A DNA stretch of 60,803 bases, taken from positions 186,001 through 246,803 of the forward strand of contig RSEE01000095.1 in assembly GCA_003971905.1 (NCBI GenBank). Direction: 5' to 3'. The stretch is from Moniliella sp. 'wahieum'. Lineage: Eukaryota. Both the position numbers and the translations under genes were made by a program. Each line of letters opens with the position of its first letter. Position 1 is the stretch's first letter. Shown one piece after another: positions 2,450 through 55,150 of this stretch. Under the pieces are notes generated by a model, which was not told the DNA's origin, ran no database searches, and worked only from the letters and a program-made list of their open reading frames with translations.

Positions 2450-3625
2450 TTACTCGAAGACGGCCTTGAGCTTGCGCGGGCCGAGGAAAGCGTCGGCCTC
2501 CTCGCGGGTCTGGAACTGACCGTGACCGTGCTTGGACGAGGTGTCGATCCACTTGAGAGCGACGTTCTCGAGCGCAGCACGCGAGGTGTGGTGAGCCATC
2601 GACTTACGGAGAGTCACCACGCGCTTCTTGGTGCCGGGGATGGAGCCCTTGAGCAGGACAAAGTCCGAGTTGACGATACCGTAGTGAGGGAAGCCACCCA
2701 TGGGCGTGATGGCCTTCTTGGTAGCGTCAAACTCGGTCGAGCCCGAGCCCTCCTCCGAGCCAGTGGCGATCCGGTAGATCTTCTTGTTGAGCTCAGTACG
2801 GTGGTGGTAGCCGTCCTGACCAGCACGGGCGACAGTGAAGCGCACGTTGGCCGGGTGCCAGGCACCAATGCAGGCAACCTTACGCAGACCACGGTGGGTC
2901 TTGCGAGGCAGCTTCTTGACGCCCCAACGGGCCACCACACCCTCGTTACCGTGACCCTTGGTGATCGAGATAACGTCAACAATCTCGTTCTCGGCAAAGA
3001 CCGACTTGAGGTCGACCGTCTTCTCAAAGTGCTCCTTGGCAAAGTCGACCTTGTCGGAGATAGAGCCACCGTTGACCTGGATCTCCATCAGGTGCGCCTT
3101 CTTCTGCTTTAGACCAGTCTTGGAGAGCTGGGTGTGGGCAAGCACACGGACGACCGTGCAGTACTTGCGGATGCGCTCCAGCTCCTTGCTGATCGAAGCA
3201 CCGCCATCCTCAGAGTACTTCTTGGCGTAGGTAGTGAACGCCTTGCGCTTGGAGCGGTACCAGTTCTTGTAGAAGCGACGCTTGACTTCCTCGGACAGGT
3301 GCTCGGCCCAGACGGTGGTCAGGGCACGAAGACCCTTGGGCGTCTCAATGTACCCAACGGCACCCACAACCACCAGAGGAGGCGCCTCGACGACGGTAGC
3401 CGACTCGACAATCTCCTTCTTGTGCATCTTGGACCCAGGGCGCTCGAGCTCACGCACAATGTGGGTCATGCCAGCCTTGTAGCCCAGGAAGGCGGTCAGG
3501 TGGACGGGCTTCTTAGGGTCGTCCTTGGGGAACGCACGCACGCGTCCGCGCGGGTGGGCGGCACGCTTGCGCGGAAGGAAGGCAGTGCTGCCGTGGCGGG
3601 GGTGCTCGTACTTGCAGTGGGACAT
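2450..3625 (-). CDS. RPL3: 60S ribosomal protein L3 (uL3), intronless, 391 aa
   Basis: Intact ORF from ATG 3625: [75 protein letters not shown], the characteristic eukaryotic uL3 sequence. Confidence 0.98.
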
Positions 3626-6432: not shown

Positions 6433-7058
6433 GCGTCCCTTCCTCTCTTGCTTTGGTGCATTGGCCCTGCCCCTCTTTTGCATTTGCTCAAAAATCTCAT
6501 CTAGTATCGTCATCCATTTGTGTTCCGGTTGGGTTGGACTGGGGTGCTAGTGCCCCTCCGCCGAGTCCAGCCTGAGTGAGACGTTCGGTTAATGCGCTGC
6601 ACCATAGTAGGACAAGTCCAAACTACATACGTCCCTCACCTGAGAGGAAAGCAAGACTTGTATGGCTACCCACGTCCGATTGAAACCTAAGAAACCGCGC
6701 CGAAGAGAGGAAGAGGAAGTGACGAAAAGTGAGGTCAGTAGACTGCGGCCTGTGAGTGCCCTCTGTCCATGTGTGCCTTTGGAAACCGCTGGTGTTCGAA
6801 GCTCCCGCCATACCAAGCATGGGCAGCAACGGTGGTGGTAGTGCTGTCAGGCCTAACAACCAGAATAACCCTCTGGCTTAGTAGAGTGCGCAGGGCTGAT
6901 TAACGTTTAACGTTTAACGCCGTGGCGCTTCCCCCACAAAATGAAATCAAGTAGGTGCGGGGTATGTGTACGTAAGCACTCGGTCCTAGCCTGGTTCCAC
7001 CTGGGCTGCCCGTCGAAGGCCACCAACTGCCATCCCCATCGGCATTTCCGTCGCGATC

Positions 7059-7128
7059 GCCACCACCACCACCACCGCCACCACCGCTATCGCCGCCACC
7101 ACCACCGCCACCACCACCACCACCACCA
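7059..7128 (+). repeat. Imperfect (CAC)n/(CGC)n microsatellite upstream of the FabD-like gene
   Basis: ccaccaccaccaccaccgccaccaccgctatcgccgccaccacc... read directly. Confidence 0.85.
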
Positions 7129-7157
7129 CGTTATCCCAGTCCACATCCACTACACTG

Positions 7158-9755
7158 ATGGGTAGGATGCGCACCTGGCCTGCGCCGCCACTGGCCAGAC
7201 TGCGTGTCGGTGCGCGCCGGTTTCACACGAGCCCCCATCGGCCCGCAGAACGTCGGCCTCCCGGCTCCGGCGCAGCGGCTGTGCCTCTCGGCGTGCGCGC
7301 CTCTCCCGACACGCGCGTTCACGCCATTGGCGGTGCTTCTCACCCCCCTGGCTCGACGAACCGCCTGACACTGACTGGGCCTTTGGAGGCGGCGACAAGA
7401 GTCGCTCTGGGCCTCGCGATGCTCCAGGTAGCCTCCGCACGCCGGTACCCGCCGGAGGCACGACTGGCACCGCTTTTAGTTCTCCCCCCCGTGTACAGTG
7501 TCGATGGCACGAACCTTTGGGAGCAGATGCCCCAGATTACCTCTTCCACCGCCGCCGCCGCTGCCACCACCTCTTCCTCTTCCTCTGCCGCCACCTCAGC
7601 CTCTCCCCGCCTCCCGCCCCGGCAGGTGAGATGTTTACTTACTCAGCACCGACAAGCAGTGTTCCCGCGTCGCCCTTTGACCCGACCCCTGGTGTGCCGC
7701 GCCTAACGCCGTGGCGGTCTCCCGCGCCTGGAGAGTGAGTCGGATTTGTTGGGCCAGCGACGGCGCAAAAGCAGCGCTTCCTCTCGGGTTCCTACCAATC
7801 TACTGCGCGGGCAGCTGGCATCACAGGTTCGGCCGGGACAGGGGCGGTACCCAATTATGGGCGCAAGAACCGTATTCGTCACTCTGCAGGGGTGGGTCAA
7901 CCCGAATCAGCTGCTACTGCCGCTAGCTCTGCCTTTGCCTCTGCTCTGCCACAACGGACCATGTTTGCTAGTCCCTCGTCCTCCTTCAATGCCAACAACT
8001 TGGCTTCGCTCGGGTCCGACCCGCCCCTCGAACGCGTGCTGACAGCGGCGGGTCTGGCTGAGTATGCGGCGAGCCGGACCCCGACGCGGAAACGTACTGC
8101 GCTCATCTTCCCTGGCTTGGTGCGTGTTTCTCCTCCTATTTTATTGGCCTTCCCCGTGGGCCAGAGCGCGTGTTCACTTTAGCTAACTTGCTCTTTTCCT
8201 CTTCAGCTCGGATCGCATACGTTGGCATGGGACGAAACCTGTTCCGGACGTTTGCGCAAGCGCGCGACGTGTGGCAGGCGCCGAACAGGCGCTGTTTGTC
8301 TCCTCTGCCGAACCAGGGGAGCCTACTGGATATCAGGTAGTGCATTGACAGATTGTGCCGGATCGCCACTGAGCGAGGAAGAGCTCCTGACCGAGCAACA
8401 ACACCGCCAGCACTTTCTGCGCCACCTCGAGGGCGTAGACGTAACCTACACGGACCCGGTCCGTGACGCTGGTCCATCTACTACCCCTTCTGGTCCTGAA
8501 CCGTCGAAGGCGGATGGCTGCGCCAACTTGTCTTTGGCGGCGACCAACTCGCCCTGACCCGACCTGAAAATGCGGCACCGGCAACGTTGGCATGTACCAT
8601 GGCCTTTTTCAATGTGCTCCGTACTGCCTTCCTACCGATTTGGTCGCGGACCATATGATGTGCTCTGTGGCCATGGAACCGGGACGTATGCTGCGCTCGT
8701 GGCGGCTGGCCATGCGAGCTTGACGGACATGGTGCGATTGTTACGGCACCAAGGCCTGGTCACCGAACAGTGCTGGCACGACGACCCGCTCCTCTTCCCG
8801 CCCGGCTGCCAGCGGCCAGACACGGACTATGCCAGCTGGGGATTCACCAACGCCGGCGCGCAGCTGTCTTCAGCCACGGACGCAGCCGGCTCGGGATCAG
8901 GATCGGGATCTAGCTTCCGCAGTCCCTCATGACGGCGGTGATGATCCGCCCGGGCCAGCTGCAGCGCGTGTGCGGATCGAAGAACTGCGAACGCTGATCC
9001 ACCTTGGTGCGGCCCCGATCGAGGTGCGCACAGGCACGGGCGAGAGCGCCGACCAGGGCCACGAAGCGTTCTTGGACGCCCACGAACTCGTCGAGATCGC
9101 CCAGTACAACTCGCACTTCCAAATCGTCTTGTCGGGCACGCGGCGCGCGGTGGACTACGTGTGCGACGTACTGCAGCGCGAGCGACTGGGTCATCGCGCA
9201 GTCAACCTCCCCGTAGCTGGACCGTATGGGACGAGCCTGATGCGCGCGGCGGACCGGGCGGTGCAGCCGGCGATCCGGGCGTTGCCGCTGCGCGAGCTGC
9301 CGCGTGCGAAGCGGGCAGGCGGGGGGAGCGGATCAGGGGCACCTGCGCCGCCGTCGGTTGCGCAGCTGGAGCTGGTGAGCGGGTACGATGGCGAGCCAAC
9401 CAGCTCGGCGCGGGCGGTGCGGTGGGAGATGCAAGGCGGGCTGGGGCGGCCGGTGCGGTGGCTGGACGCGCTGGATCGGATGCTGGAGCGCGGGGTGGAG
9501 CGCTTCATCTGTCTGGGCCCGGGGCGGGCGGTGGGCCACCTGCTGAGCAAGGAGCTGGCGCATCGCCAGCGCGTCGAGGCGAGCAATGCGCAGCGCGGCC
9601 TGGCGGAGGTGCACCACGCCTCGGCCGCGCCGTACGACGCGCCGCGCACACCAGCCCACTACGAGGTGTGGTCCGTCGCGTCGACGGAGGATGTGCGGCA
9701 GCTGGGCGGCGTGCTCAGCCGCCTCTCCCACTCGGAGCGCGGCGGGGCGGCGTAG
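7158..9755 (+). CDS. Malonyl-CoA:ACP transacylase (FabD/Mct1)-like protein with long N-terminal extension; catalytic residues substituted
   Basis: Motifs in order across frameshifts: RTALIFPG / intron 8120-8206 (GTGCGT..GCTAAC..CAG) / YVGMGRNLFRTFAQARDVW, LTRPENAAPATLA, GHGTGTYAALVAAG, MTAVMIRPG, EIAQYNSHFQIVLSG, RAVNLPVAGPYGTSLM, PVRWLDALDRM, FICLGPGRAV. Presequence-like start (RLRVGARRFHTS). Start position uncertain. Confidence 0.8.
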
Positions 9756-9776
9756 GCGCGTCGGATGGGAGTGTAC

Positions 9777-9815
9777 TATGACTGCTATGACTGCTATGAC
9801 TGCTGCTACGACTGC
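9777..9815 (+). repeat. Short 9-bp tandem repeat (ACTGCTATG-like) just downstream of the FabD-like stop
   Basis: tatgactgctatgactgctatgactgctgctacgactgc. Confidence 0.7.
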
Positions 9816-10358
9816 TGGAGACTGCGCAGAGGACAGACTATGCGCTGTGGGTTGGGGTTTGCCAGTGTGCCCGACGGAGGAGTGCCTTGTGGCTTGCGGG
9901 GTAAACTAGCCCAGGAGGCAGCACAGACACGACGAATGACGTCATGCACCATGGGGCTCTGCATGCATCATGCATCATGCACCATTCATCGATCATCACC
10001 GTTCGCACGGGCCGATGCGATGCACCATGCAGATCCTGCTGCGATCTGGTGGGAGGCACGAGGCAGCAGGCAGCAGGCAGCAGCTAGTCGCTAGGCAGGA
10101 AATCGTTGTCTCCGCGGCAGAATCTGCGTCATGGGTGCTCGCACAGCGCCAGTGCCGGCGCTCAGGGACACCCACACTGCCCCCGTGGCGGCTGGGTGTC
10201 GTCCATCGGCGATGGGCGAGCAGGGCAGCCGTCTCTGACGTCATTCGCTCGCGGCTGTGCTGCCGCCAGCCAGTCGCCCCCCGCGGCCTCAGCGGGCAGT
10301 CGCCCAACACCAACTCTGCCTCTCCGCCACCTCCTCCTCCCCGATTCGCCCATCCGCC

Positions 10359-36480: not shown

Positions 36481-36842
36481 GAGCCGAGCTGGAGTTGAAA
36501 TTGAACACTGGATACGTAATGCGCGGGGTAGGCGGGCGGAATTGGGGCAGGCGCGGCGATGCGCCGTTCGAACGGGCGGTGCTGGCGTGCACGGGGCAGC
36601 ACCAGGCAGCACAGCACACACCCGCAGCACCGTCGATCCAGTTCGCAAACTTAGCCTGTCCGCCGCCGCCGCCGCTGGCTCTCTCCACCTCACCACCTTC
36701 GCGCCCCGTCTTGAGGTATGTCCTGCCGCCCCTCCTCTCCCACCACCACCACCACGGCTGCCACCATGGCCGCCACCACGCCCCCATCCTCACCGCGTCC
36801 GATGCTGCTGCCCGTTCTAACCCTGCCTGCTAGACTGCCGCC

Positions 36843-37351
36843 ATGACTGCCGCCGACTTTAACACGGAGCTCTGCCCTGTCTATGCGCCCTTCTTTGGCG
36901 CCATGGGCTGCGCCGCGGCCATCGTTTTCACCTGCTTTGGCGCCTCGTACGGCACGGCCAAGAGCGGTGTGGGCCTGAGTGCAATGGGTGTCCTGCGCCC
37001 CGACCTGCTCATCAAGTCCATCATCCCCGTCATTATGGCCGGTATCGTGGCCATCTACGGCCTGGTGGTATCGGTGCTGATCTCGTCGGGCATCAAGTCG
37101 CCCATGTCGCTGTATGCTGGCTTTGTTCAGCTGGGCGCTGGCTTGTCCGTCGGCCTCGCTGGTCTGGCCGCTGGGTTTGCCATTGGCGTGGTGGGCGACG
37201 CGGGCGTGCGCGGCACGGCGCAGCAGCCCCCCGTCTCTTCATTGGTATGGTCCTCATCCTCATTTTCGCCGAGGTGCTGGGTCTGTACGGCCTGATTGTT
37301 GCCCTGATCATGAACACGCGTGTGCAGGACGACATTGGCTGCTCCCTCTAA
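36843..37351 (+). CDS. VMA3: V-ATPase V0 proteolipid subunit c (16 kDa)
   Basis: [51 protein letters not shown]. After removing 2 extra C in the run at ~37227-37232 it continues [31 protein letters not shown], with the proton-carrying Glu. Confidence 0.95.
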
Positions 37352-37827: not shown

Positions 37828-39545
37828 TCATACAGACATGGCGTCCTCGTCGTCACTCCATGCGTCCCCTCCGCCGAGCGGCTCCTCGAGCAGTTCCCCC
37901 CGAGCCGTTGAATTGACCAGCTCGCGGCGCACTTCGGGAGAGATACCATCATGGTACTGGACACGGAGCAAATCGATCAGTGCCGTCTTTTGGTCGGGCG
38001 TCAAGTCTTGTTTGTAGCGCTGGGCAAATACCAGTAAGCTCTGGTGCCACAGCACGGGCATGCGGCGTTCTCCGGTCGAGTACCCATCCACCTTGACTGC
38101 CTCAACGCCTTTGCTTGGGTCGGAAAATTTAAGAAAGTGGAAAACGAGCGCATCAACAACCTTGTAGGGCAATGCGTACTTCTTGTCGAGCAAGACGCGG
38201 ATAAAAAGCGAGGTGGGGCCCTTGTATGGCATCGTAGCCAAATGAAGCAGCGCCGCAGCCGAGTGGAGCATGGGCACCGATACTTTTGCAGGACAGAGGA
38301 AATGATGGCGGCTTCCTTGAGCGTCACTGTGCCGCTCTCAATCATGGGGAACAGGAACCCCTTGAAAAAGGCCGAGGGTTTGTAGAGCGCCTTCTTGATC
38401 GCATCGTACATCTGTACCGACAGTTTCCCCTTGTCGTCAATCTCGTCGCGTACCTTGTCCAGCAGAACAAGCTCAAAGTACCGTTGCGTCTGGTACGCCT
38501 TGAGGTTGCTCACGCAGATCCTCGTCACAGCCAGTGTGGCATGAGGGGTCCACTCTTGGATTGGTAATGTACAAGATCGTCTCCCAGGCGGGCAGGGTGG
38601 GAATGATCTTCAATGGCTTAGGAAGCGGGCCGGACTTGTAACGGGAAAGGAGTTGTCCAACCCTGGGGTGCGACGCGAGTCAGTAGGAGAGACCAACATA
38701 TTGGAAGGGGCACAACGTACTTTGTGTAGACCTCGACCACCTTCGGGGTGATGCTAGGCGGGAGCTTGTTCTCAGGCCCCGAGGCACCTCCGCCACCCAT
38801 CTTCATTGCCTCTTGCTCTTCCAGCTTGGCCATGATGATGTCCGCAAGCGTCCGTCCTCCTGCTGCCGGGGGCTCGTCCCCATCAGGCAATGCGTCGGCC
38901 AAGGCGGCAAACTCGCCACCCAATTTGGCACCTGCGCGTTCACGCTTGCGCTCTCCAACAGGGCCTTCCAGCTCTTCAATCAACTCACGCTGGTTGGGGT
39001 CCAGTTCGAGCCCGCGATAGGTTTCTTCCAGATCCTCGTCGCCCGACTCGGCTTGGGCCTCATCAAGTTCCCCGTCATCGGACGAAATCTCATCGTCGTC
39101 AGCCAAGACCACTTGGCGACCAAATCGAACCGTCTTTCCCACTTCCTCATCATCCCTTTGGCGCAGATGCATGCGTGCATCCACCCCGAGCCGCTCCGCC
39201 TCCTCCTCAGCTTCGATCTCGGCTTGCTGCTCCTGCGCGAGGCGGAGAATGTTGCGGGACAACTTGGGATCGACAAATGCACCCGCACCCGCATCGGCCG
39301 AGCCGTGGACTTGGGCACCCGTGATGTGGCCACCAGGACCGTCGAGGTCCATCTCTGCTTCCTCGTCGTGCGCGGCGCCCGTCTTGCCCACTTTGCCCTT
39401 GCGGCGGCCGGGGCACTGACCCGACCGTATTTGTTCCGCAGCTCCTCCTCGCGCAGCTCCTGGGCGAGAGACTGCTTCTGGCCTGCTTGTCGAGCGGCTT
39501 GAGCGCCGACTTCTTCTTGGGCTTGGACGCAGGCGCACGCGGCAT
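37828..39545 (-). CDS. ENP1: Bystin / Enp1, 40S biogenesis factor (frameshifts; intron 38663-38720)
   Basis: [112 protein letters not shown]. Confidence 0.95.
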
Positions 39546-39815: not shown

Positions 39816-41947
39816 ATGGCAGCCGACGCTTCTCTCTGCGGCCGCCTCGCCCTCTGCGCCTACATCCGCACCGACCACCGTGCCTCCGGCTTCTTCCGCC
39901 TCTGCCTCTGCCTCTGCCTCTGCCTCTGCCTCTGCCTCCGCTCCCTCCCGCCGCGGTCCGTCCGTCCCTCGCTTCCGACTCGGACGATTCGGACGGCGAC
40001 GATGACGACACGTGGGACGACTTTGACGACCAGGAGGGCACGGGCCTCTCCTACGCCGAAGGAGCCACCCACGGGGCGTCTGGGGGCTCCGCCAACCCAC
40101 CTTGCCTTGTTTCCAGACGCTGGTTCGACAGAGCTCAAGACGTTTTCGAGTGCCACCGAGGCACTGGACCACGCCTCGGCGCTTGGATGCGACCTGGTCG
40201 CCGTTGTCCAGCGCCTGGGATTGGATGCGCTGGCTGTAATTCGCCTACTCAACCATTTGCGCCGTGCCCCTGGCAGTGTCAGCCCCCAACAAGTCGCGGC
40301 TCTGACTGGGAACGAGCCGTACCTGTCGGATGACGCAGAACTGAACCCTGTTCCTGGTCGGAAAACGATGGTCTACTGCGTGTGTATCCTACCCCCACCC
40401 CCGTTTCCTATGTTAACCCTTGATTTGGGGTACCAAACGCTAACGTGTACCTTTACCTTGTGTCGGATGGGATCTACCAGAAATCGACTTTGATGACCTT
40501 CTCGAGGCACGTGCCAACGCGGGCCAAGCGGATTCGGGCGACATTCATTTGCGCAACCGGGTAGCTGAACTCGAGTCGCAGTTGCAAGCGATCCAAATGT
40601 CCTATGCCGACTTGCAAGCGCGCTCCCTCAAGATGCTAGGACTCAAAGCGGATGGGACACCGACAAAGGATGCCGCTGGACTGGCGGCGACGCCTGCCAA
40701 GCGAGACGACGATACCAATTACTTTGATTCGTATGCTGGCAACGACATTCACCAGACCATGCTGAGTGACACGGTGCGTACCCTCACCTACGCCAAGTTC
40801 ATTCTTGCGCCCGAGAATGCGCACATCTTCCGCGGCGCCCGCGTGATGGACATTGGTGCCGGAAGCGGGATTTTGAGCATGCTCGCGGCGCGTGCGGGCG
40901 CAGCACAAGTGATCGCTGTCGATGCAAGCAACATTGCCGTTCGTGCCGAGAAGAACATTCGTGAAAACGGACTGAACCACATCATCCGTGTTGTGCGAGG
41001 CAAAATCGAAGACTTGGACGAGGAGCTGGCGCCGTACCGGGGTAAGGTGGACGTGATCATTTCCGAGTGGATGGGTACTTTTTGCTGTACGAGTGCATGC
41101 TGCCTTCGGTCCTGCATGCGCGAGACCTGTACCTGCGCACAAAGCCCAACCCCCAGCGTCCCCTTGCTGGGCCCACCGGGCTGCTCGCTCCCAGCCACAA
41201 CCGCATGACGCTGGCGGCCGTGTCGGATGCGGAGCTGCTGCACGAGCGGATCAACTTTTGGAACGACGTGTACGGGTTCAAGATGAGCGCTATGACCGAG
41301 GGCCTGTTTGACGAGGCGTATGTCGAGACCCTTTCACCCGAGAGCATCGTGTCGAACGTGGTGGACATCTTTGACCTCCCGCTCGGTATCCTGCCTGCCA
41401 AGCAGCCTGTCTTCCGCAGCCCGTTCCAGCTGGAGCTGCAGAAGGATGCGACGGTGCACGGGTTCACCTCGTGGTTCGACACGTGGTTCATGACTTCTCA
41501 CCAGCCCTACCGAGTGGACGACAAGGGGAGCCGGTGCAGATGAAGGGGGGGCAGGTGCTGGACCTGCCCACGTGCACGACCAAGCCGGTCGAGGCGTCGG
41601 ACGTACCGGGGATTGAGCTGCGCGGCAACCAGATCGCGCCGGCGCCCACGGCGGAGCAGGAAGAGAAGGACGCCAAGGCGGGGGGGCTGGCAGTGTCGTT
41701 TACCACGGGGCCGTACGGCAAGCCGACGCACTGGAAGCAGAGTGTGTTCCTGCTCCGGGAGCCGATCGAGGCCAAGCGGGGGGAGCGGATCGTGGGGGAC
41801 ATGATCGTGACGCAGTCGGAGAGCAACTCGCGCGAGCTGGATGTGGAGCTGCACTACCTCGTCCAGCCGTCGACGGCGGGCACGGCGGGCAAGACGGCGG
41901 GCAAGCACGTGCAGACGCGCATGGTGAGTCTGTTCAAGGTGAGGTAG
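39816..41947 (+). CDS. RMT3: Type I protein arginine methyltransferase, PRMT3/Rmt3-like (frameshifts; intron ~40380-40480)
   Basis: YFDSYAGNDIHQTMLSDTVRT, VMDIGAGSGILSMLAARAGA (SAM motif I), IISEWMG..LLYECML (double-E loop), THWKQSVFLL (THW loop). Acidic N-terminus and IRLLNHLR..YLSDD..PV segment typical of Rmt3. Confidence 0.88.
39898..39939 (+). repeat. (GCCTCT)n hexamer repeat in the 5' part of RMT3
   Basis: gcctctgcctctgcctctgcctctgcctctgcctctgcctcc. Confidence 0.9.
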
Positions 41948-42276: not shown

Positions 42277-43846
42277 ATGAGTGACGCTGCCGCCGAGGCA
42301 TCCCCACCGCCCGCTTCGCCCGCCTCCCCCGCCTCCCCCGCCTCGCCCGCCAAAGACGCAGACGCAGGCTCACCGTCCGCACCGCCTTCGACGTCGGCCG
42401 CCGCGCCCGCCGATTCCCACCCCCTCAGCCGCAAGCGCGACCGCGAAGTCAGCCTCGAGCCCTCTGCCTTTGTATGCGCCTCCGCCCCCCCACTAATTTG
42501 TGCCGGTGCACATGCTGACCTGCTCTTTCCCTTGTAGCCGCCGCCGGATGCCGTGTCGACGAAGCGCAACAGGCGGCTCGACTCGGACTCGGTCTCGGAT
42601 CGCAGTGCGTCGCCGTCCAAACCCAGTCCTGGCAAGGCAGGCGAGGACGAAGGCTTGGCGCCGGGTGTGGGTCAGATCCGGAAGAAAGTGCAAGACCTAG
42701 ACTGGAAAGAAAAGGAGGGCAAAGGAGAGAGCGGGGCTGAAGCACCTCTGGAGCCTGCTGCCGCTGCCGCTGCCGTAGACGCCAAGTCCCCCAATGCAGA
42801 GGCGAGCAAGCCCGCAGAGGAAGCAGACGCAGCGGCTGGTGCGAGCACGCCCTCGGAACGCACCTCGGACGCTCCGTCTGCGCCTACAGAGCCCAAGCCT
42901 GCGTCCCCTCCCGCACCCAAGTCTACCCAGCCAACATTTGCCTCGTTCACCAGCAGCAGCAACTCGTCTCCTTTTGTAACGGGTGCGAGCGGGTCCAAGT
43001 CCTGGCTGGCCTCCTCGACACCGACCACGCCCGGTCTGCGTCCCAGTGCGCTGGGGTCTTCGCTCGGGAAGCTAGGAGGCTCTCAGACATCGCCTGGGGC
43101 CGCGTCGACACCGCCGCGCGTCTCGCCTCGATCGCCCGCCACCTCCAATCCCGTCAAGGGCAAGGCGGCGATGCCAACCACGGCTTCGTTGGGCTTCGGT
43201 TCCTTTGCGGCTGGTGCGGGATTCGGCCATGCCGGGAACGCTTCGCCGTTTAGCTCGGCTGCTGCTTCGGTGACCAAGAAGGCTGCTGCTAAACCAGATG
43301 AGACGGCTCCGGCCTCCTTTGTCACCGCGCTGGAAGAGTCTGGGCCAAAGTCCAATGTGGCGGATGAGATTGCTAAAGAGGAGGAAGCAAACAAGCCCAA
43401 GCTGGAGGTCAAGGCAGAGAACTGTATGTGGACGACGCTCCTCCGTTGCGAGAGTAAGACAGGACTGACACGGGGAACGATTAGTGTGGACAGGCGAGGA
43501 GGACGAGACGAGCGTCTTTTCCAACCGCGCCAAGCTCTTCACGGGCGCCGAGAAGGGTGCGTGGCGCGAGCGCGGCACAGGCACGATCCGGGTCAATGTG
43601 CCCAAGGACGCCAAGGATGGGCAGGGCGGTCGTCTGGTCATGCGCGCCGAGGGGGTGCTGCGGGTGATCCTCAATGTCAAGCTCTTTGCCGGCCTGCGCT
43701 GCGAGTTGGCCCAGGACAAGTTTATCAAGCTGCTTGCGTTTGAAGACGGGGAGCTGGTGCACTTTGCGCTCCGCTTCCCCAACCCAGCTGCCGCCGCCGG
43801 GTTTAAGGAGGCTGTCGAGGCGCATGTGCCTTCGCCGACGGCGTGA
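42277..43846 (+). CDS. RanBP1-domain protein (Yrb2/RanBP3- or Nup2-like); introns 42472-42537 and 43424-43484
   Basis: NLS-like RKRDREVSLEP, FG/FS-rich middle, C-terminal RanBD TGEEDETSVFSNRAKLF..WRERGTGTIRVN..RLVMRAEGVLRVILNVKLF. Both GT-AG introns restore the frame. Confidence 0.88.
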
Positions 43847-44019: not shown

Positions 44020-47000
44020 GGCTAATGGGACACCGAGCCCGTTGCTGTACTGTGCAACCATAAATAGACGCCTTCCAACCCTCCTTCCTGCCTAGTCCGC
44101 CTCCGTTGCTGCTGGCCGAGGGGCCTCGGCCAACTGGGCCTGATAGACCTGCACCAGCTGCTCGTAGCCCCATAGCATCCAGTTCGCACGTCAGCTCATA
44201 CACCTGCCGTGCCAACCGTTCCCGTTCGGCCTCCGCCTCGCCCTGCTGCACGCGGTCCGCCACGAGATAGCCAGCGGCGGGGGGCGTGTGTGTCGCGGCG
44301 TCGTGCCAGTGCCAGCGGGGGACAGCCATGCGCGCTGGGCATGCTGTTGTTGCTCCAGCTGCTGTGCCAGCTGCTGCGCCCGCGCCTCAAAGTGCTGCGC
44401 GCGGTCACGGGCGGAACTGTACTGGGCCTGGACGGTGGCCAGCGCGTTCTGGGCAGTGGCGAGTTGACGGGCGAGGGTGGACCAATTGGAGAGGAGTGCG
44501 ACCATCTCGTGCCGCTGCCGCTCGTACTTCTCCACGTCGCCGTCCCAATGAACCAGGGCGGCGGTGAGCTGGCGCACACGCTCAGCGTACATGTCGGACA
44601 AGTGGATCTTGGGCTTGGCCAGCTCATAGTCCCCGCGCAGTTGCTCCTTGTCAGCCTCCTCTTGTTGCAGCAGCCGTGCCACGCGCGCCTTCTCGGCCCG
44701 CAACGCATTCACCTCCGTCGTCAAATGTGCCTTTTCGCGCTTCCACACCCGCTCGCTGTGCGAATGACTCGCCTGCCGCTGCGTCTGCGTCGAGTTCCAC
44801 AGTTTGTACTCCCGCACCACCTGGCCAATCCGTTCTCGCTCCCGCTGCGCATCCTTCTCCAGCGCAGACACTTGCCAGGTCAACTGCCGCACGCGGAACT
44901 CGAGGTTCTGCTGCTCGGCCTCAGTCGCGGTCTGCTTGATTCGCTTGGCATGCACGTGGCCGAGATGGGCGAGGTGCTGCTCTTGGAGATAAAGCTCGTA
45001 CGCCAGTTCGTTACGCAACAACATATTTTCTCGCTCCAGCTGCGCTCCGTACCGACCCGGAGAGGCATGCGGAAGATCACCACTGGTATCGCCCGTGTCG
45101 CCGGTACCCCCCTCGGGACCAAGAGAAGAGGCAGTTTGCTCCTGCGACCGGGCGGACGTACCCGTACCAGAAGGCATGACGACCGAGTGCCTCAACGGAT
45201 GCACGCCCCTCTCTCCTGACAGGCCCCGTTCCGACGAAGCATACGAGTCCCGAAGCGACCGGCGGTCGCGCAAATTGCTCCCCACGGAACGGCGTGAAAG
45301 GGAGGCAGAGCGCGAGACGGCAGGAGAGCCCCGCGACTAAATTGCCCATCACCACGGCGGATGCTACGGCGGGCGTGGCTCGCGTCCCAGCCAAAGAGGC
45401 GAATCAGGTCCCGATAACGAGTCGGGCAGAGACGAGGGGTTGACTTCGGGACTGGGTTTGAGCGGTGTGGCGAGCTGGCGGTTTGACTGACTTCCTTGAC
45501 GGATGTTGTGGGTTCGGCAGTAGCGGCGGCCAGCGTGGTTGCAGCGGGCCCTGTGCCCCCTCGACCGGGGGGTCGTGGTACAGGCGCAAGGACAAGTGCG
45601 TCCGGCGCGTCCGACTGTTTGAGACGGGCATGCTGGGCGAGAATATGATGAGCGTCACGCGGGCTGGGCGAGCCAAGAGCCTGCATGGTAGATACTGAGC
45701 TCTTGCGCACAGGGACCACAGGCGCTGCGCCCGATGCTGCTGCCGCAACGATGGGGCTGCCCGCGTCTCCCAAGGGAAGAGAGGCGGGCGTAGATGGCGC
45801 AGAAAACGAGTGAGGTCCGGCTGGCGGGGGCGGTAGGGGCGAGGGGATGGGAAGGAGCGTCGGCGGCCTCTCAGCCTCCAACCCGCTACCCCCGCGCGTC
45901 GGTGGGCCAGGCTGAAAGGGCGTATCAATCTCCGCTGCAACACCTTCCCTGCCAGGACCCAAATGGAGGCGCAGCGACTTGGTGGCCACAATGCTGGCGT
46001 CGTACCCCCGCCAGCGGGCCGTGTCGCTGATTTCTTGCTGAGCGTCGAGCGTGATGAGACTGGGATGGAGTACGTGGCTCTTCAAGATGGGACGGATACG
46101 AGCTTGGAGCTGGCGCTGGTCCATGACATCTGCCCAGGATCCCTTGAAGAGCGTAGGATACCCACTGCTCTCCATGTAGGCAATGGGTTCGCGGAAGAAG
46201 CGAACTGTGTTGCAGGGAAAGATACCGTACAGAAACGTGAACAGTGGTTGGGCATTCGGTTCGGGCAGGTCCACCGCATCGGAACTGGAGGCTGGCGGGG
46301 CGATAAGCAGTCAGCAGTGCACGTTGAGACGGCACTAACACATGGTAAAAGGCATGATAACGTACTAACGGGTTCCCACGCGATGCCCGCTTTGAGAGAG
46401 GTCCGCTGGCCAATCCGATCCATATCCAGGTAATCGACATCAAGCATCCGACGATCCGACTCTTTCCCTAACCCAAGACGCTCTTCCCATCCCACGCCCA
46501 ATGTCCTCCAATCCACAATACGGGCCAGGACCGAAAGGAAGGCAGGAAGCCCACCTGCACCCCCAGCGCAATCCAATCGGGAATGTGGGGGATGAGCATG
46601 GTCAAGACCCGCAGGCCAACAGTGACGATCGTCTTGGACGTATCCAGCTCAAGGGAGAGCAGTAAATGTTGGGGAAGAAGTGTCCGGGTTATCTGATAGA
46701 TCAGATTAGGAGCGTAGCGGAAGAAACGCACCAGCAGCTCCAGCAGACACAAGCGTGCTTCGGCCCGCAAAAATGTATCGGCAACATGGTGGAAAAAAGG
46801 GGTTGGAGCATGGTGCCCAAACTGGAGCACAATCTCGCCCAAGTTGTATCGCCATGTACTTTTGCGCTCTGCCTCTTCGTCGGACGAGTCGTACGCGCCC
46901 ACAGGGCTCGAGAGCCCGACGGGGTCGACAGTATCCTCCAGAGAAAACATGCTCTGCGACAAATAAGTCAATGATGCGCTGGGCGAAAGCGCGGGGGTCT

Positions 47001-48983: not shown

Positions 48984-50201
48984 TCACCAAGGCATCTCGA
49001 CAAGGTATTTCTTGTCAATGTTCTCGTTTGGCCCCTCGTCGCGGGGCAAAACGCTGCCAAAGACACGGTCCCAGATACGCGTCTGTTTACCGTAGTTGCC
49101 CGAGTGCTTCCACCCCCGGCGGTGGTGAATGTCATGGTCCTCCATAGTGATGTCCATGTCAAGCGGCTGCAGCAGGAACGGGAACGCCTGGAACGCAGTA
49201 AAGTAGAGTCGCACGCCCGCGTGTCCGAAAAGCTCAACGACCGTCACCATAGCGTTGCAGAACCACCATTCATAGAAGTTGGGCCGCAGGAACGAGATGG
49301 GGTACATGGTGAGCCATGTAAGGAATGGAATGCCAACCATGTCAAAGAGTTCCTGCTCATCGTCGGCAAAGAGGGTGAGGAGCGTGTTGGGGTGGCGTGA
49401 GAGGTGGTGCGTGCGGTGGAATGGCCAAAGCGAATCCGACTCGTGCATGACCCGGTGGTACCAGTAATAGTAGAAATCGAGCGTCCACGTGTAGACGGCC
49501 ATCTGGATAGGCAGCTGCCAGCGAACCGTGGGTTTCGAGTCGGCGTCCCACGTCGTCATGACTTCCATAAAGACACGTTGGGTCACGGTGAGCAGCAGAC
49601 TGGCAGCAACCTTGCCGCCGAGGGCGTCGGGCACTTCGTCACGCGGCACGCCCGAGTCAAAGTACCCATACTTGGCACCAAGGTCGCGGCACCTCCAGAT
49701 GACCTGGATGCCCACGTGGTAGTAGAACAGCATGTAGAAGGGAATAGCGAGCCACTTGTTGATGCCAGCCTGGGATACGGGCGACTCCTGGTCTTTGTAG
49801 AGCACGTCGTTGAAGAGGTACGAGATGGCGTACTGGATGAGGACGGGGGGCGCGGCACGGAACATGGCCCAACGGAGCTGGGTGAGGGGCGAAAGGTAGG
49901 GCACGGGGGCCTTGGGGTCGACGTACTTGGGCTCGTCCGCTAGAGGCCAGAGGTCAAGCAGCGTCATAACGTGGACGGCCCAGTTCTTGGGGGCGTCGGG
50001 GTTGGCCCTCCATTCGGACCGGAAGGAAGAGTTGCCCATGCTGATCTTGCGCACCTCGGCGATGTTCTCGTCGAGGTCAGCAGCGCGCATGTAAGCTGGG
50101 GTGTCATCGGTATCGGGTGCGGTGGTGGTGGTGGCGGCGGCGGGGCGCGCAGCGGGAGGCTGTGGCTGGCTGATGCCAGTGGCGGTGGCGGCGGCGGTCA
50201 T
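48984..50201 (-). CDS. Fatty acid hydroxylase / sterol desaturase superfamily membrane enzyme, 405 aa
   Basis: Intact ORF with His boxes DFYYYWYHRVMH, HRTHH, ELFGHAG and HDIHH..NYGKQTRIWDRVFGS. Confidence 0.9.
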   Translation of the reverse strand: MTAAATATGISQPQPPAARPAAATTTTAPDTDDTPAYMRAADLDENIAEVRKISMGNSSFRSEWRANPDAPKNWAVHVMTLLDLWPLADEPKYVDPKAPVPYLSPLTQLRWAMFRAAPPVLIQYAISYLFNDVLYKDQESPVSQAGINKWLAIPFYMLFYYHVGIQVIWRCRDLGAKYGYFDSGVPRDEVPDALGGKVAASLLLTVTQRVFMEVMTTWDADSKPTVRWQLPIQMAVYTWTLDFYYYWYHRVMHESDSLWPFHRTHHLSRHPNTLLTLFADDEQELFDMVGIPFLTWLTMYPISFLRPNFYEWWFCNAMVTVVELFGHAGVRLYFTAFQAFPFLLQPLDMDITMEDHDIHHRRGWKHSGNYGKQTRIWDRVFGSVLPRDEGPNENIDKKYLVEMPW

Positions 50202-52379: not shown

Positions 52380-55150
52380 ACCAACTGCTAATCATTGATC
52401 AGAACCTGTCGCAGACTTCCAGCACTCAGATCTACCAGCTTCCCCTGCGCTGCCGAAGTCGGAGACGCGCCAGGCCTAGCGATTGCATTGGACGACGCCC
52501 GCCTGTTATGTGGTCTGAACTTCGTATTCGGTATTGGCCAGAGCAGGCTGACGGGACCCCTCCCCCAAGGCACGATGGAGGCCCTCGGCTTGGGGCACCA
52601 TACTGCTCGCAAAGTATATTTTCTTTTCTCTCCTCCACCGCTGGCCATCGAGAGTAGAGGCACAAAAGGCGCGGTGCTCCAGCTTGGCCTGTCGCAATTC
52701 ATCCTGCAGCTTGTTTCTTCCCACCTGGTACGAAAAGTCGGGTTAATGGGGAGAAGGAAAAGCGAAGACCCTCTTGAGGTCGTCGAAGGCGCTTTGGCCG
52801 ACAGGTGTTTAAACAAACCGCTGAAGAGTCTTGCGGACGAGGTCGGATAGGGGTGTGGACATGCGGGCATAGGAGCAAGTGAAGTGGCGGTAGTAATTGG
52901 CAAACACAAGGAACACCTGAACTTGGCTGCTGGTCTTGAGCGTGGGCCATGCCTTGATCGCTTCCATTTTAGCCGGATCCATCCCAATCCCCGTGAACGA
53001 AACTACGTAGCCCAAATACTTGATGCGGGATGTGTGAAACCGACATTTGTCCGGATTAAGGTAGACCCTGGCTCGCTGCAGATCCCATAACACCTCAGCA
53101 ACATGCTCCTCGTGTGCCTTTTCGTCTGACGAGAAGAGCAAGATATCGTCCAGATATGTCAGCACCGAGACGTCGAGGATGTTCCGAAGGAGATCATTCA
53201 TTACGGCTTGGAAAGTGGCGGACGCGTTAAAGAGACCGAACGGCATGACGAGGGACTCAAAAGGATCATATCCAGTACCAAACTCCGTCTTGTACTCCTC
53301 GCCCTCTTTGACCTTCAAAAGGTTGTGCGCCCCACGGAGGTCAAGCGTGTAAAAAACGCGAGCCCCGGACAAGCGATCGGATAGTCAATGCAGAGTGTCG
53401 GAGTGAGCCATCCTGCTTCTTAATAGAAATGACACCCGCCCCAAACGGCGATTTAGACGGACGAATGAACCCAGAGGCCAGATTTTCGTCAATGCCCCGG
53501 CCCAGGACACCCTTCTCGGCCCCAGAAACAGAGTAGAGGCTAGTGAAGGTGGGAGTAGCCCCGGGCGCGAGGCCAATTATGGTCCGCCGCACGATGGGTG
53601 GGACGTGTCTTGGCGTCAGACTTGAAGAAGGTATCGAGAGAAAGGCTTGGTAACGCGAACGCACCGTTTTCCCAACGTGGTCGACATACTCTGGTGTGTC
53701 TATAATTGGTCAAGAAACACTTCCTCCGGACCCTCTGACATGGATACAGACGAGATGACCAAAGCTGGATCACTGGGATGGGCAACGCATACCTCGGCCT
53801 CCATATCGTCGACCATCTCTCCTTCAAACTTTTCCAAGGATAGGAGGTCAATCGGCAGACTAATAGGGGAGAGTGAGGACTGAGGAGGGGCGGGACCAAA
53901 GCATGAGGAGCGGAGATACGTAACTTGGGAAGGGGGGTGCTGGCTCTGAGATGAGATTACAGACTGGTACGGGAGCTGAAAGGAAGACTGTGCAGCAGAT
54001 GCTGGGGAGGTGAAAACTGGCTGGGGGAAGGCTGGGAATGGGTCTGGAGTTGGAACTGAGGAGGACGACAACGTCCGCGACATTTGCGGTTTATCGAAAT
54101 GTAACGTGTGCGAGAAGTAGTCCGGGGAAGGGTTGTGGGCCTCGAGAAAGGGAAGGCCAAGAATCAAGGGATGGTGGAGGGACTGAGGCGACGGAACATT
54201 TCTCTCTCTCGGTCGACACATTTCCGAGCCGAGACCGTGACGGATGCCTCCACCGCCAGGGTCACCAGACCCGAAGAGATGGGACGTTCGTCAACCACGC
54301 GGATTGACAAGGGCGCCGACTCCAGCGGAAGGGCGAGCAGGCCGTTCCGGTGGGCAAACACCCGATCCACATGAAGACACTGTTAGAACCAGACTCAGCG
54401 AGGGCAAGAAGCGGGATCGGAACTGGGGACGGGGACGAGGACGAAGAACCAGGACCAAATGAACGAGTACCGCGAAAGATCCTGTTGGGAAGACCGCCCG
54501 GGGCCGACGCCTGCCTGAGACACACAGCCGTGGAAGATTCGGCCTGACGAGGCGGGGGCGGACCGTCGAGCGCGCAGTGTTGTGGGCAATGTGGTGGTCA
54601 CGGGTGCCGCAAAAGTAGCAGGATCCTTCCACGCTCTACGCTCACGATACCGCGCTGCCCTCGCTGTGGCATGCGTCTCAGCTGCGCTAAGGTCCATGTA
54701 TTCGGGTTCGGACGGCGACGGCCCGAAGAACTGGCTGCCGCTGGGAAGTCTGAGAGGTGCCATACTATTGCTGCGTATACCCAATGCCTGGGGCTCGTCG
54801 ATATTGATTACTTGCGAAGCGCGCAACTGCTCAAACGACGGCCGATTGACGTGCGTAGACTCACCACGAGCAGAACGACCGTCCCGCACCTTGGGTTTCA
54901 GCCCATAGAGAGAAAGTCCCAATAGAACTGCTCAGGAGGGGTATTGGGGCTGTATAGCACCTCTCAGCAGACGCACAAAATGAGCGGCATAGTCAGCAGC
55001 CGACTCGGACTGAGTGAGCGCCCGATACTCCACATAGGCTTACTGCTGCGGAGGGTTACGTTCATCCCATTCGGTCAAAAGTACAGCCCGAAAGGCGGGC
55101 CACGACTGAGGTTCAGGGGAGGTGCGCTGACCCAATGGTAGTTCAGGCTC
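52380..55150 (-). mobile_element. Degenerate Ty3/Gypsy LTR retrotransposon remnant (gag-protease-RT-RNase H; integrase core and LTRs not seen)
   Basis: Gag-like YRALTQSESAADYAAHF..YGLKPKVR, knuckle CYFCGTRDH, protease ALAESGSNSVF and LILGLPFLEAHNP, RT FIRPSKSPFGA..LDLRGAHNLLKV..VMPFGLFNASATFQ..YLDDILLFS..KYLGYVV. Many stops and frameshifts. Confidence 0.9.

Follow-up and report, generated by a model that had tools for sequence, protein, structure and literature searches.

A gene of the Mct1/MCAT family in a Moniliella contig that probably encodes a pseudoenzyme, and the serine-to-glycine replacement among its Ustilaginomycotina relatives

A 60.8 kb stretch of the genome of Moniliella sp. 'wahieum' (contig RSEE01000095.1, positions 186,001 to 246,803 of the forward strand; the whole stretch is termed the window) carries a gene that spans about 2.6 kb and contains a single intron. 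By sequence comparison, the locus is this organism's orthologue of the mitochondrial malonyl-coenzyme A (CoA):acyl carrier protein (ACP) transacylase (EC 2.3.1.39), known as Mct1 in fungi, MCAT in humans and FabD in bacteria. The gene product was compared chiefly by way of a protein from a close relative (P0025, 502 residues). The gene probably encodes a real and selected pseudoenzyme of the Mct1/MCAT family, which is kept for a non-catalytic purpose. Comparison with its relatives revealed both properties of a pseudoenzyme, i.e. the catalytic residues are missing and selection has been maintained. Coordinates are given in Table 1.

The FabD active site, as established for Escherichia coli FabD, consists of an oxyanion Gln, a nucleophile Ser, a carboxylate-binding Arg and a general-base His, which serve in ping-pong transfer of malonyl groups, and the Ser is indispensable in FabD-type enzymes. 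An initial annotation of the window had reported the motifs GHGTGTY, VRLLRHQG and VAGPYGTSLM, and had interpreted them as replacement of Ser by Gly, Arg by Gln and His by Gly. Reading of the codons confirmed the motifs, with VRLLRHQG at 8732–8755, VAGPYGTSLM at 9213–9242 and the Gly codon gga (8675–8677) at the position of the FabD catalytic Ser. The replacements are borne out by HMMER alignment of P0025 to solved FabD chains, where Gly, Gln and Gly face the Ser of G(H/L)SLGEY, the Arg of R-x-R-G and the His of PFH(S/C), respectively. The oxyanion Gln is absent as well. Leu codons lie on both sides of the inferred intron where the FPGQGSQ motif is expected, and P0025 also has Leu at the Gln column. 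Thus four of the four family residues, Ser, Arg, His and Gln, are replaced in the window, the Gln as read through the inferred splice. Two further residues are lost in the window and P0025: Gln takes the place of an Asn that is 100% conserved in 20 canonical sequences, and Ala that of a Ser that is 90% conserved in them. P0025, P0211 and P0212, which are from other assemblies and a clearly different organism (83% identical), read GHGTGTY, RLLRHQG and VAGPYGTSLL. Because these proteins display the same Gly, Gln and Gly, the three substitutions are considered real. With four catalytic residues replaced, the protein most likely can neither form a malonyl-enzyme nor hold malonate, and we infer that transferase activity has probably been lost.

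Relatives were collected by two word-index searches and an exhaustive HMMER search with P0025, which gave 3407 matches at E 1e-3 and 17 at 1e-30. Named family members are from Tilletiaria, Tilletia, Violaceomyces, Exobasidium, Ceraceosorus, Sympodiomycopsis and Parajaminaea, as well as from Ustilago, Sporisorium, Kalmanozyma, Moesziomyces, Thecaphora, Testicularia and Malassezia. Close homologues in Tilletiaria, Ustilago, Sporisorium, Malassezia and others are annotated as [acyl-carrier-protein] S-malonyltransferase, an automatic name that is very probably wrong for the lineage of the window. A joint alignment of 206 proteins comprises 71 family members and 135 FabD-like proteins from outside the family. 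At the elbow position of the FabD Ser, the family has 58 Gly and one Ser, with 12 proteins not covering the site. The Arg column has 55 Arg, two Tyr and two Gln (12 not covering), the His column 64 His, two Phe, one Tyr, one Gly and one Asn (two not covering), and the Gln column 49 Gln (22 not covering). Proteins outside the family show Ser in 133 of 135, Arg in 125 of 135, His in all 134 that cover the site and Gln in 115 of 122. Accordingly, the Ser-to-Gly change is not private to the window but is found in 58 of 59 covering Ustilaginomycotina homologues. The proposal of the initial annotation, a conserved fold from which the catalytic set is gone, stands with respect to the P0025 model and extends to the Gln.

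Additional losses are scattered within the family. P0003 and P0027 have Tyr for Arg and Phe for His (GHGMG, RHYG, GPWFTS) and keep the Gln. Ceraceosorus has lost the Arg, and P0006 has Tyr for His. In the abundant Malassezia-like P0076 cluster, Asn replaces His (GPYNTS) in 12 of 12 covering members. At least three Ustilaginomycotina lineages have lost more of the active site after the Ser. As in the window's lineage, the loss of the Ser was followed by that of Arg and His in P0003/P0027 and by that of His only in the P0076 cluster, but the replacement residues differ. The orthologues from Tilletiaria anomala (P0029), Sporisorium reilianum (P0062), Ustilago trichophora (P0049) and Malassezia cuniculi (P0069), which are labelled 'related to malonyl CoA-ACP transacylase', are 40–51% identical. 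They share the N-terminal motifs, the inserts, the C-terminal tail and the elbow Gly with the protein of the window. They differ in that they keep Gln, Arg and His, none of which is left in the window's lineage, and in that the branch of that lineage is much longer.

The sole family Ser (P0072) is from a Malassezia furfur cluster. In this cluster (one 90% cluster; P0072 and P0217 versus P0213–P0225), 11 of 13 covering members have GHGSG and two have GHSSG. These Gly and Ser elbow variants constitute a natural pair that bears on whether Ser restores activity. The Tilletia horrida protein P0074 (971 amino acids) has an extra elbow residue (GHGTSGTY) and an N-terminal extension of about 430 residues. 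A FabD homologue of bacterial size, the P0164 cluster (319–320 amino acids, nine members), reads GHGLGQY in nine of nine, and P0164 keeps Arg and His; this cluster is a separate Ser-less FabD lineage. A Ser-bearing paralogue was sought with the Mct1 of Mixia (P0079). The best 120 of 666 matches are Pucciniomycotina proteins, followed by those of bacteria and Dimargaris; no Ustilaginomycotina or Agaricomycotina protein is among these 120, and a more distant paralogue is possible. The canonical matches closest to P0025 are from early-diverging fungi, i.e. Coemansia, Dispira, Ambispora, Entomortierella, Nowakowskiella and Blastocladiella.

A tree of the Ustilaginomycotina homologues had been proposed in the initial annotation as a means to determine whether GHGxG marks a conserved clade. 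The family does form one clade in the trees, with the Gly at the elbow in all but one of the covering members. The sister of this clade is the Pucciniomycotina group (Shimodaira–Hasegawa-like approximate likelihood ratio test, SH-aLRT, 95), and the N-terminal extensions of the two share Y-x-A-R-Y-R. The Mct1 proteins of Pucciniomycotina (Mixia P0079, Rhodotorula, Sporobolomyces, Microbotryum, Puccinia and Phakopsora) also have long N-terminal extensions, but differ in that Ser and His are kept; they read FPG(S/T)GSQ and RL(H/L)G, so that Gln and Arg are replaced. Replacement of the oxyanion Gln and the malonyl-binding Arg is seen subphylum-wide (P0079, P0081, P0085, P0088, P0089, P0092 and P0104).

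Within the family, the pair formed by the window and P0025 is fully supported and is grouped with P0003/P0027 and the Tilletiaria group (98/90). Stem lengths, in changes per column, are 1.50 for the window and P0025, 0.66 for P0003/P0027 and 0.19 for the Tilletiaria group. A sister relationship between this pair and P0003/P0027, the other lineage without Arg and His, has an SH-aLRT of 86 in one tree, appears as a trichotomy in another and has support of 72/35 in the careful tree. The differing replacements fit either independent losses or drift after a single loss. In the proposed history, the Ser would have changed to Gly at the base of Ustilaginomycotina, and Gln, Arg and His would have been lost afterwards, along the branch that leads to the window's lineage, which exceeds the branch of the nearest neighbours about eightfold.

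The homology of P0025 to FabD is clear. In a phmmer search, P0025 matches 21 solved FabD-type chains, the best with an E value of 1.5e-18; for the bacterial FabD chains, E values range from 1.5e-18 to 2.4e-9. Structure modelling, another check proposed in the initial annotation, agreed with the FabD/MCAT assignment. An AlphaFold2 model of P0025 from a 102-sequence alignment has a predicted local distance difference test score (pLDDT) of 87.5 and a predicted template modelling score (pTM) of 0.90, and displays the two-subdomain FabD fold (large alpha/beta and small ferredoxin-like). The best 20 Foldseek matches listed for this model are all FabD/MCAT chains, with template modelling (TM) scores to target of 0.79–0.91. 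The bacterial FabD chains (1mla, 2g1h, 3ptw, 3qat, 6u0j, 6smd_B) score 0.83–0.91, with 6smd_B at 0.91; human MCAT scores 0.80 as 2c2n_A and 0.79 as 8csp_8, the latter being MCAT in an assembly intermediate of the human mitochondrial ribosomal small subunit (mtSSU). Bacterial FabD and the protein of the window also have in common the surroundings of the elbow and the motifs A-N-x-N-S-x-x-Q-I-V-L-S-G, LPV..(P/A)(F/Y) and GPG. They differ in the four catalytic positions, all of which are replaced in the window's lineage, and in length, about 310 residues versus about 500 after the intron. Unlike bacterial FabD, the protein of the window has conserved inserts, is extended by 200 residues or more at the N-terminus and ends in a conserved C-terminal YEVWS tail. 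In one such insert, LLFPPGCQRPDTDYASWGFTNAGA (alignment columns 897–917), the residues L, F, P, G, P, Y, W, F, N and A are kept in the window. The conserved C-terminal block runs from GVERFICLGPGRAVGHLLSKELAHR to YEVWSVASTEDV.

Family homology spans 7841 to 9752, as determined with tblastn and by alignment to family proteins. The product of 7820–8119 aligns to Tilletiaria P0029, to P0027 and to Violaceomyces P0030, and its AG.GAVPNYG.. and LPQ.T.F.SPSSSFNA.. are motifs conserved in the family. The inferred intron parts ...TALIFPGL from LGS(Q)YVGMG, and a frame 2 stop at 8180 lies within it. Further upstream, the tentative start is an ATG at 7158 in frame 0, which begins an Arg-rich N-terminus, and the family motif WAFGGG is found near 7384 in frame 2. 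There must therefore be further frame breaks between 7158 and 7820.

Conservation of at least 90% in 52 family members defines 163 columns; the conserved residue is retained in the window at 126 of 160, and some of these are family-specific positions that are missing from canonical FabD. Differences between the window and P0025 fall at 9 of 145 conserved, 30 of 187 intermediate and 53 of 149 variable columns (conserved versus variable, Fisher p 2.2e-10). A similar comparison of P0003 with P0027 shows differences at 26 of 152 conserved and 49 of 112 variable columns (p 4e-6). Since both the window and P0025 are without the catalytic set, and yet their differences are depleted at conserved columns, the fold appears to have been selected after the catalytic loss. 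The pattern of differences indicates that purifying selection continued after the losses. A metagenome scan with P0025 for DNA of a close relative gave 50 pattern matches, none of which was confirmed.

The reading frame of the gene is broken in the assembly. With four homologues and P0025 as tblastn queries, consecutive pieces of the gene are found in frames 2, 1, 0, 2, 1, 0, 2, 1 and 0. A frameshift-aware alignment of P0025 residues 13–502 to window positions 8190–9760 shows 397 of 480 aligned residues identical (83%) and eight frame breaks. All eight consist of two bases where P0025 has one residue, i.e. one base is missing, and the leftover dinucleotide fits the P0025 residue at seven of the eight. 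Break 7 was placed at 8879 by the alignment and was moved by hand to 8918–8919; the segment 8920–8961 then gives QSLMTAVMIRPGQL. There are no insertions, larger indels or in-frame stops within the segments between the eight breaks, and no frame break between 8964 and the stop. The initial annotation had stated that the motifs are in frame, and that indel errors consequently do not explain the substitutions. This premise proved incorrect: the eight breaks lie between 8216 and 8963, and the elbow is read in frame 2 but the His motif in frame 0. The three key codons themselves are not hit by breaks. P0025 and its cluster mates have single unbroken frames of 502 residues.

Frames are also broken elsewhere in the window. 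The Bystin gene is split inside its Pfam domain, with profile positions 84–181 and 174–290 in separate frames. In the protein arginine methyltransferase (PRMT) gene, the methyltransferase domain, PRMT_C 5–105 and PRMT_C 105–162 are each in their own frame. The frame switches of the split neighbours have the same offset as the breaks of the Mct1-like gene. The longest open reading frame (ORF) from ATG to stop in the 60.8 kb is 405 amino acids. There are 255 stop-to-stop ORFs of at least 110 amino acids, and the 128 in the first half give one Pfam family at E 1e-5, RPL3. A frame tracker based on codon-position G+C alone shows 18 phase switches on the same strand in the window as a whole, and in 14 of these the shift is that of a one-base deletion. 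Because the breaks of the Mct1-like gene are all single missing bases, the neighbours are alike and the P0025 frame is unbroken, we conclude that the eight breaks are assembly errors and not decay. Two genes of the window are intact, RPL3 (2450–3625, minus strand; Pfam profile 1–369) and a fatty acid hydroxylase-domain gene (48984–50201, minus strand), and the missing bases are therefore unevenly spread. The two intact genes lie in stretches of lower G+C (0.55–0.59) than the broken genes.

Several observations weigh against a selected pseudoenzyme. P0025 falls narrowly under the Pfam cut-off for PF00698 (Acyl_transf_1), with 30.4 bits against 32.7; Tilletiaria P0029 (43.2), Ustilago P0047 (47.8) and P0027 (41.0) are above it. 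None of five single-frame pieces of the gene matches Pfam at E 0.01, and none of the stop-to-stop ORFs of the locus does so at 1e-5, but these pieces are too short and divergent to bear on homology. The FabD-like domain is acidic (isoelectric point 5.9, net charge -12), without a basic shift that would hint at RNA binding. Contigs from two public runs reach 7 of 30 bins and cover the gene at 9445–9671 (227 bases, no differences) and 9037–9175 (one difference), without gaps; the two amount to 366 bases, and the key codons lie outside both. The frame breaks are also denser here than in the judged neighbours: eight fall within about 750 bases, followed by 790 bases without any, against at least one in Bystin, at least two in the PRMT gene and none in 1.2 kb of RPL3. 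True decay in this one strain is on this account unlikely but still conceivable. In 54 of 59 family proteins, Ser or Thr directly follows the elbow Gly; in the window it is Thr. Finally, Gln, Arg and His have long been kept without the Ser in most family members, which suggests that the pocket still matters, or binds something, in those species. In these species, a chemistry that is independent of the Ser is conceivable, and the family at large may thus bind without the Ser, or catalyse in an unusual way, instead of being a pure scaffold. Since most species keep Gln, Arg and His, the term 'dead' can be applied to the window's lineage with much more confidence than to the family as a whole.

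The density of breaks, the long stem of the window and P0025 and the loss of about 21% of the family-conserved columns raise the question of whether the gene is a decaying pseudogene, in which the enzyme became dispensable and both breaks and residue losses are real degeneration. This is very improbable. Every break is of one and the same kind, a single missing base, and this kind is found in essential neighbours and across the window; the P0025 frame is intact and carries the same substitutions; differences between the two proteins are strongly depleted at conserved columns; and the independent contigs agree with the window over their length with one difference and no gap. The view of the initial annotation that the gene is not decaying is upheld by the intact frame of the relative and by this depletion. 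It is barely conceivable that the three odd codons were miscalled and that the organism in fact has an ordinary MCAT. The assembly is error-prone and the read contigs do not reach the three codons, but the errors observed are missing bases rather than substitutions, the residues at all three sites are identical in P0025, P0211 and P0212, which were assembled separately, and the elbow Gly recurs in many independent genomes of the family.

A protein that is still an enzyme, its fold re-tooled for another reaction or nucleophile, or that has become a ligand-binding sensor, is improbable but deserves more weight than decay. The candidate nucleophiles are the Thr after the elbow Gly and the Cys before the first Gly of the elbow (LCGHGTG). 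The prevalence of Ser or Thr after the elbow Gly and the presence of Gln, Arg and His in the majority of family members are in agreement with such a change, as is the GHSSGE of Pucciniomycotina, which occurs together with Gln-to-Ser/Thr and Arg-to-His/Leu changes and implies that the pocket was remodelled before the Ser was lost. However, the window's lineage is also without Gln, Arg, His, the Asn (now Gln) and the second Ser (now Ala), so that no recognizable base, oxyanion hole or carboxylate anchor is left, and the replacements Leu, Gly, Gln and Gly do not look catalytic. In place of Arg and His, the window's lineage has Gln and Gly but P0003/P0027 have Tyr and Phe, as would be expected of constraint that was released and not redirected. 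For the lineage of the window, a selected pseudoenzyme accounts best for these residues: the protein keeps the FabD fold and the family inserts and would act without catalysis.

Mitochondrial fatty acid synthesis feeds lipoic acid and, via acyl-ACP, the assembly of the respiratory chain and of iron-sulfur clusters. To our knowledge, MCAT/Mct1 is the only known entry point of malonate into this pathway. The human protein retains its catalytic residues and its enzyme role. It is the mitochondrial member of the same family, and the likeness to the window's protein is at the level of the fold (TM of the P0025 model 0.80 for 2c2n and 0.79 for 8csp chain 8). PMC9892005 describes human MCAT as an mtSSU assembly factor that is present in assembly intermediates at the small-subunit head; the precedent cited in the initial annotation is thus real. 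An assembly factor of this kind would bind the head in its h31/h42 region. Human MCAT shows that the FabD fold can hold a second, non-catalytic job on the mitoribosome, and the ribosome link is that of the human protein. Yeast Rsm22, an mtSSU assembly factor with a methyltransferase fold that has lost S-adenosylmethionine binding (as described in PMC9892005), is of an unrelated fold and serves as an analogy only; it sets a precedent for a mitochondrial enzyme fold that was kept after loss of its cofactor site.

The Arg-rich N-terminus at the tentative start suggests that the protein of the window may be mitochondrial. Perhaps the retained job is structural, either the docking of ACP or, as with human MCAT, that of a chaperone of the mitoribosomal small-subunit head; this role is speculative and rather unlikely. 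Slightly less doubtful, and still tentative, is a broader proposal, that Ustilaginomycotina have no Ser-dependent mitochondrial transacylase, their sole Mct1/MCAT orthologue having lost its nucleophile basally and having been kept for a non-catalytic mitochondrial job such as mtSSU assembly or ACP docking. If so, malonyl-ACP for lipoate would come by an unrecognized route or not be made at all, and the window's lineage would represent an end state, in which the whole active site is erased and the fold still selected. An orthologue without nucleophile throughout a subphylum poses the question of where malonyl-ACP and lipoate come from in these fungi, which include crop smuts and the skin yeast Malassezia. 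Proteins of the family could also serve as natural separation-of-function alleles in the study of the moonlighting of MCAT that was observed on human mitoribosome assembly intermediates. Literature searches turned up no article on MCAT or Mct1 without the Ser in these fungi; PMC4393869 and PMC5603697 did not bear on the subject.

Table 1. Positions in the window of the Mct1/MCAT-like gene, its sites and frame breaks, and of neighbouring genes with split frames
Feature	Position	Strand	Remarks
Whole gene, Mct1/MCAT-like protein	7158–9755	+	start tentative; stop codon tag 9753–9755
Exon 1 end, conserved part of N-terminal extension, up to ...RKRTALIFPGL	7820–8119	+	frame 2, unbroken
FPGQGSQ site, here FPGL|LGS(Q)	8117–8209	+	Leu codons 8117–8119 and 8207–8209; no Gln; depends on inferred splice
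Intron, GTGCGT...CTAAC...CAG	8120–8206	+	87 bases; splice inferred from sequence; homology resumes at 8207
Frame break 1	8216–8217	+	leftover CA, P0025 Gln
Frame break 2	8278–8279	+	leftover GC, P0025 Ala
Frame break 3	8325–8326	+	leftover AC, P0025 Phe
Frame break 4	8504–8505	+	leftover TC, P0025 Val
Frame break 5	8629–8630	+	leftover TT, P0025 Phe
Frame break 6	8655–8656	+	leftover AT, P0025 Ile; four codons ahead of elbow
Nucleophile elbow G-H-G-T-G-T-Y	8669–8689	+	ggc cat gga acc ggg acg tat
Gln (caa) replacing malonyl-carboxylate Arg	8750–8752	+	RHQG versus family RHRG
Family-specific conserved insert	8783–8865	+	absent from canonical FabD
Frame break 7	8918–8919	+	leftover CG, P0025 Arg; between ...SSF and QSLMTAVM
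Frame break 8	8962–8963	+	leftover CA, P0025 His
Gly (ggg) replacing catalytic His	9228–9230	+	GPYGTS versus family GPYH[ST]S
Strongly conserved C-terminal block	9480–9725	+	family alignment
V-ATPase proteolipid (ATP-synt_C) gene	36834–37348	+	two overlapping frames; frame break or intron
Bystin (Enp1-like) gene	37831–38609	-	overlapping ORFs; break near 38265–38289, one-base-deletion type
Protein arginine methyltransferase gene	40444–41944	+	three frames; both switches of one-base-deletion type

Short tandem arrays flank the Mct1-like gene at 9776–9817, 9962–10004, 10061–10083, 6900–6919 and 7060–7129. Their units include CTATGACTG (3.2 copies), CATGCAT (4.1 copies), AGGCAGC (3.3 copies) and TTAACGT (2.9 copies), and a run of 23 CCA among them encodes a His/Pro-rich stretch upstream of the gene. 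Elsewhere in the window there is an ORF with a RanBP1 domain (43469–43843, plus strand) and a weak Hamartin-like match (45195–46310, minus strand; E 1e-4). A reverse transcriptase (RVT_1) fragment at 52812–53384 on the minus strand is probably the remnant of a retroelement.

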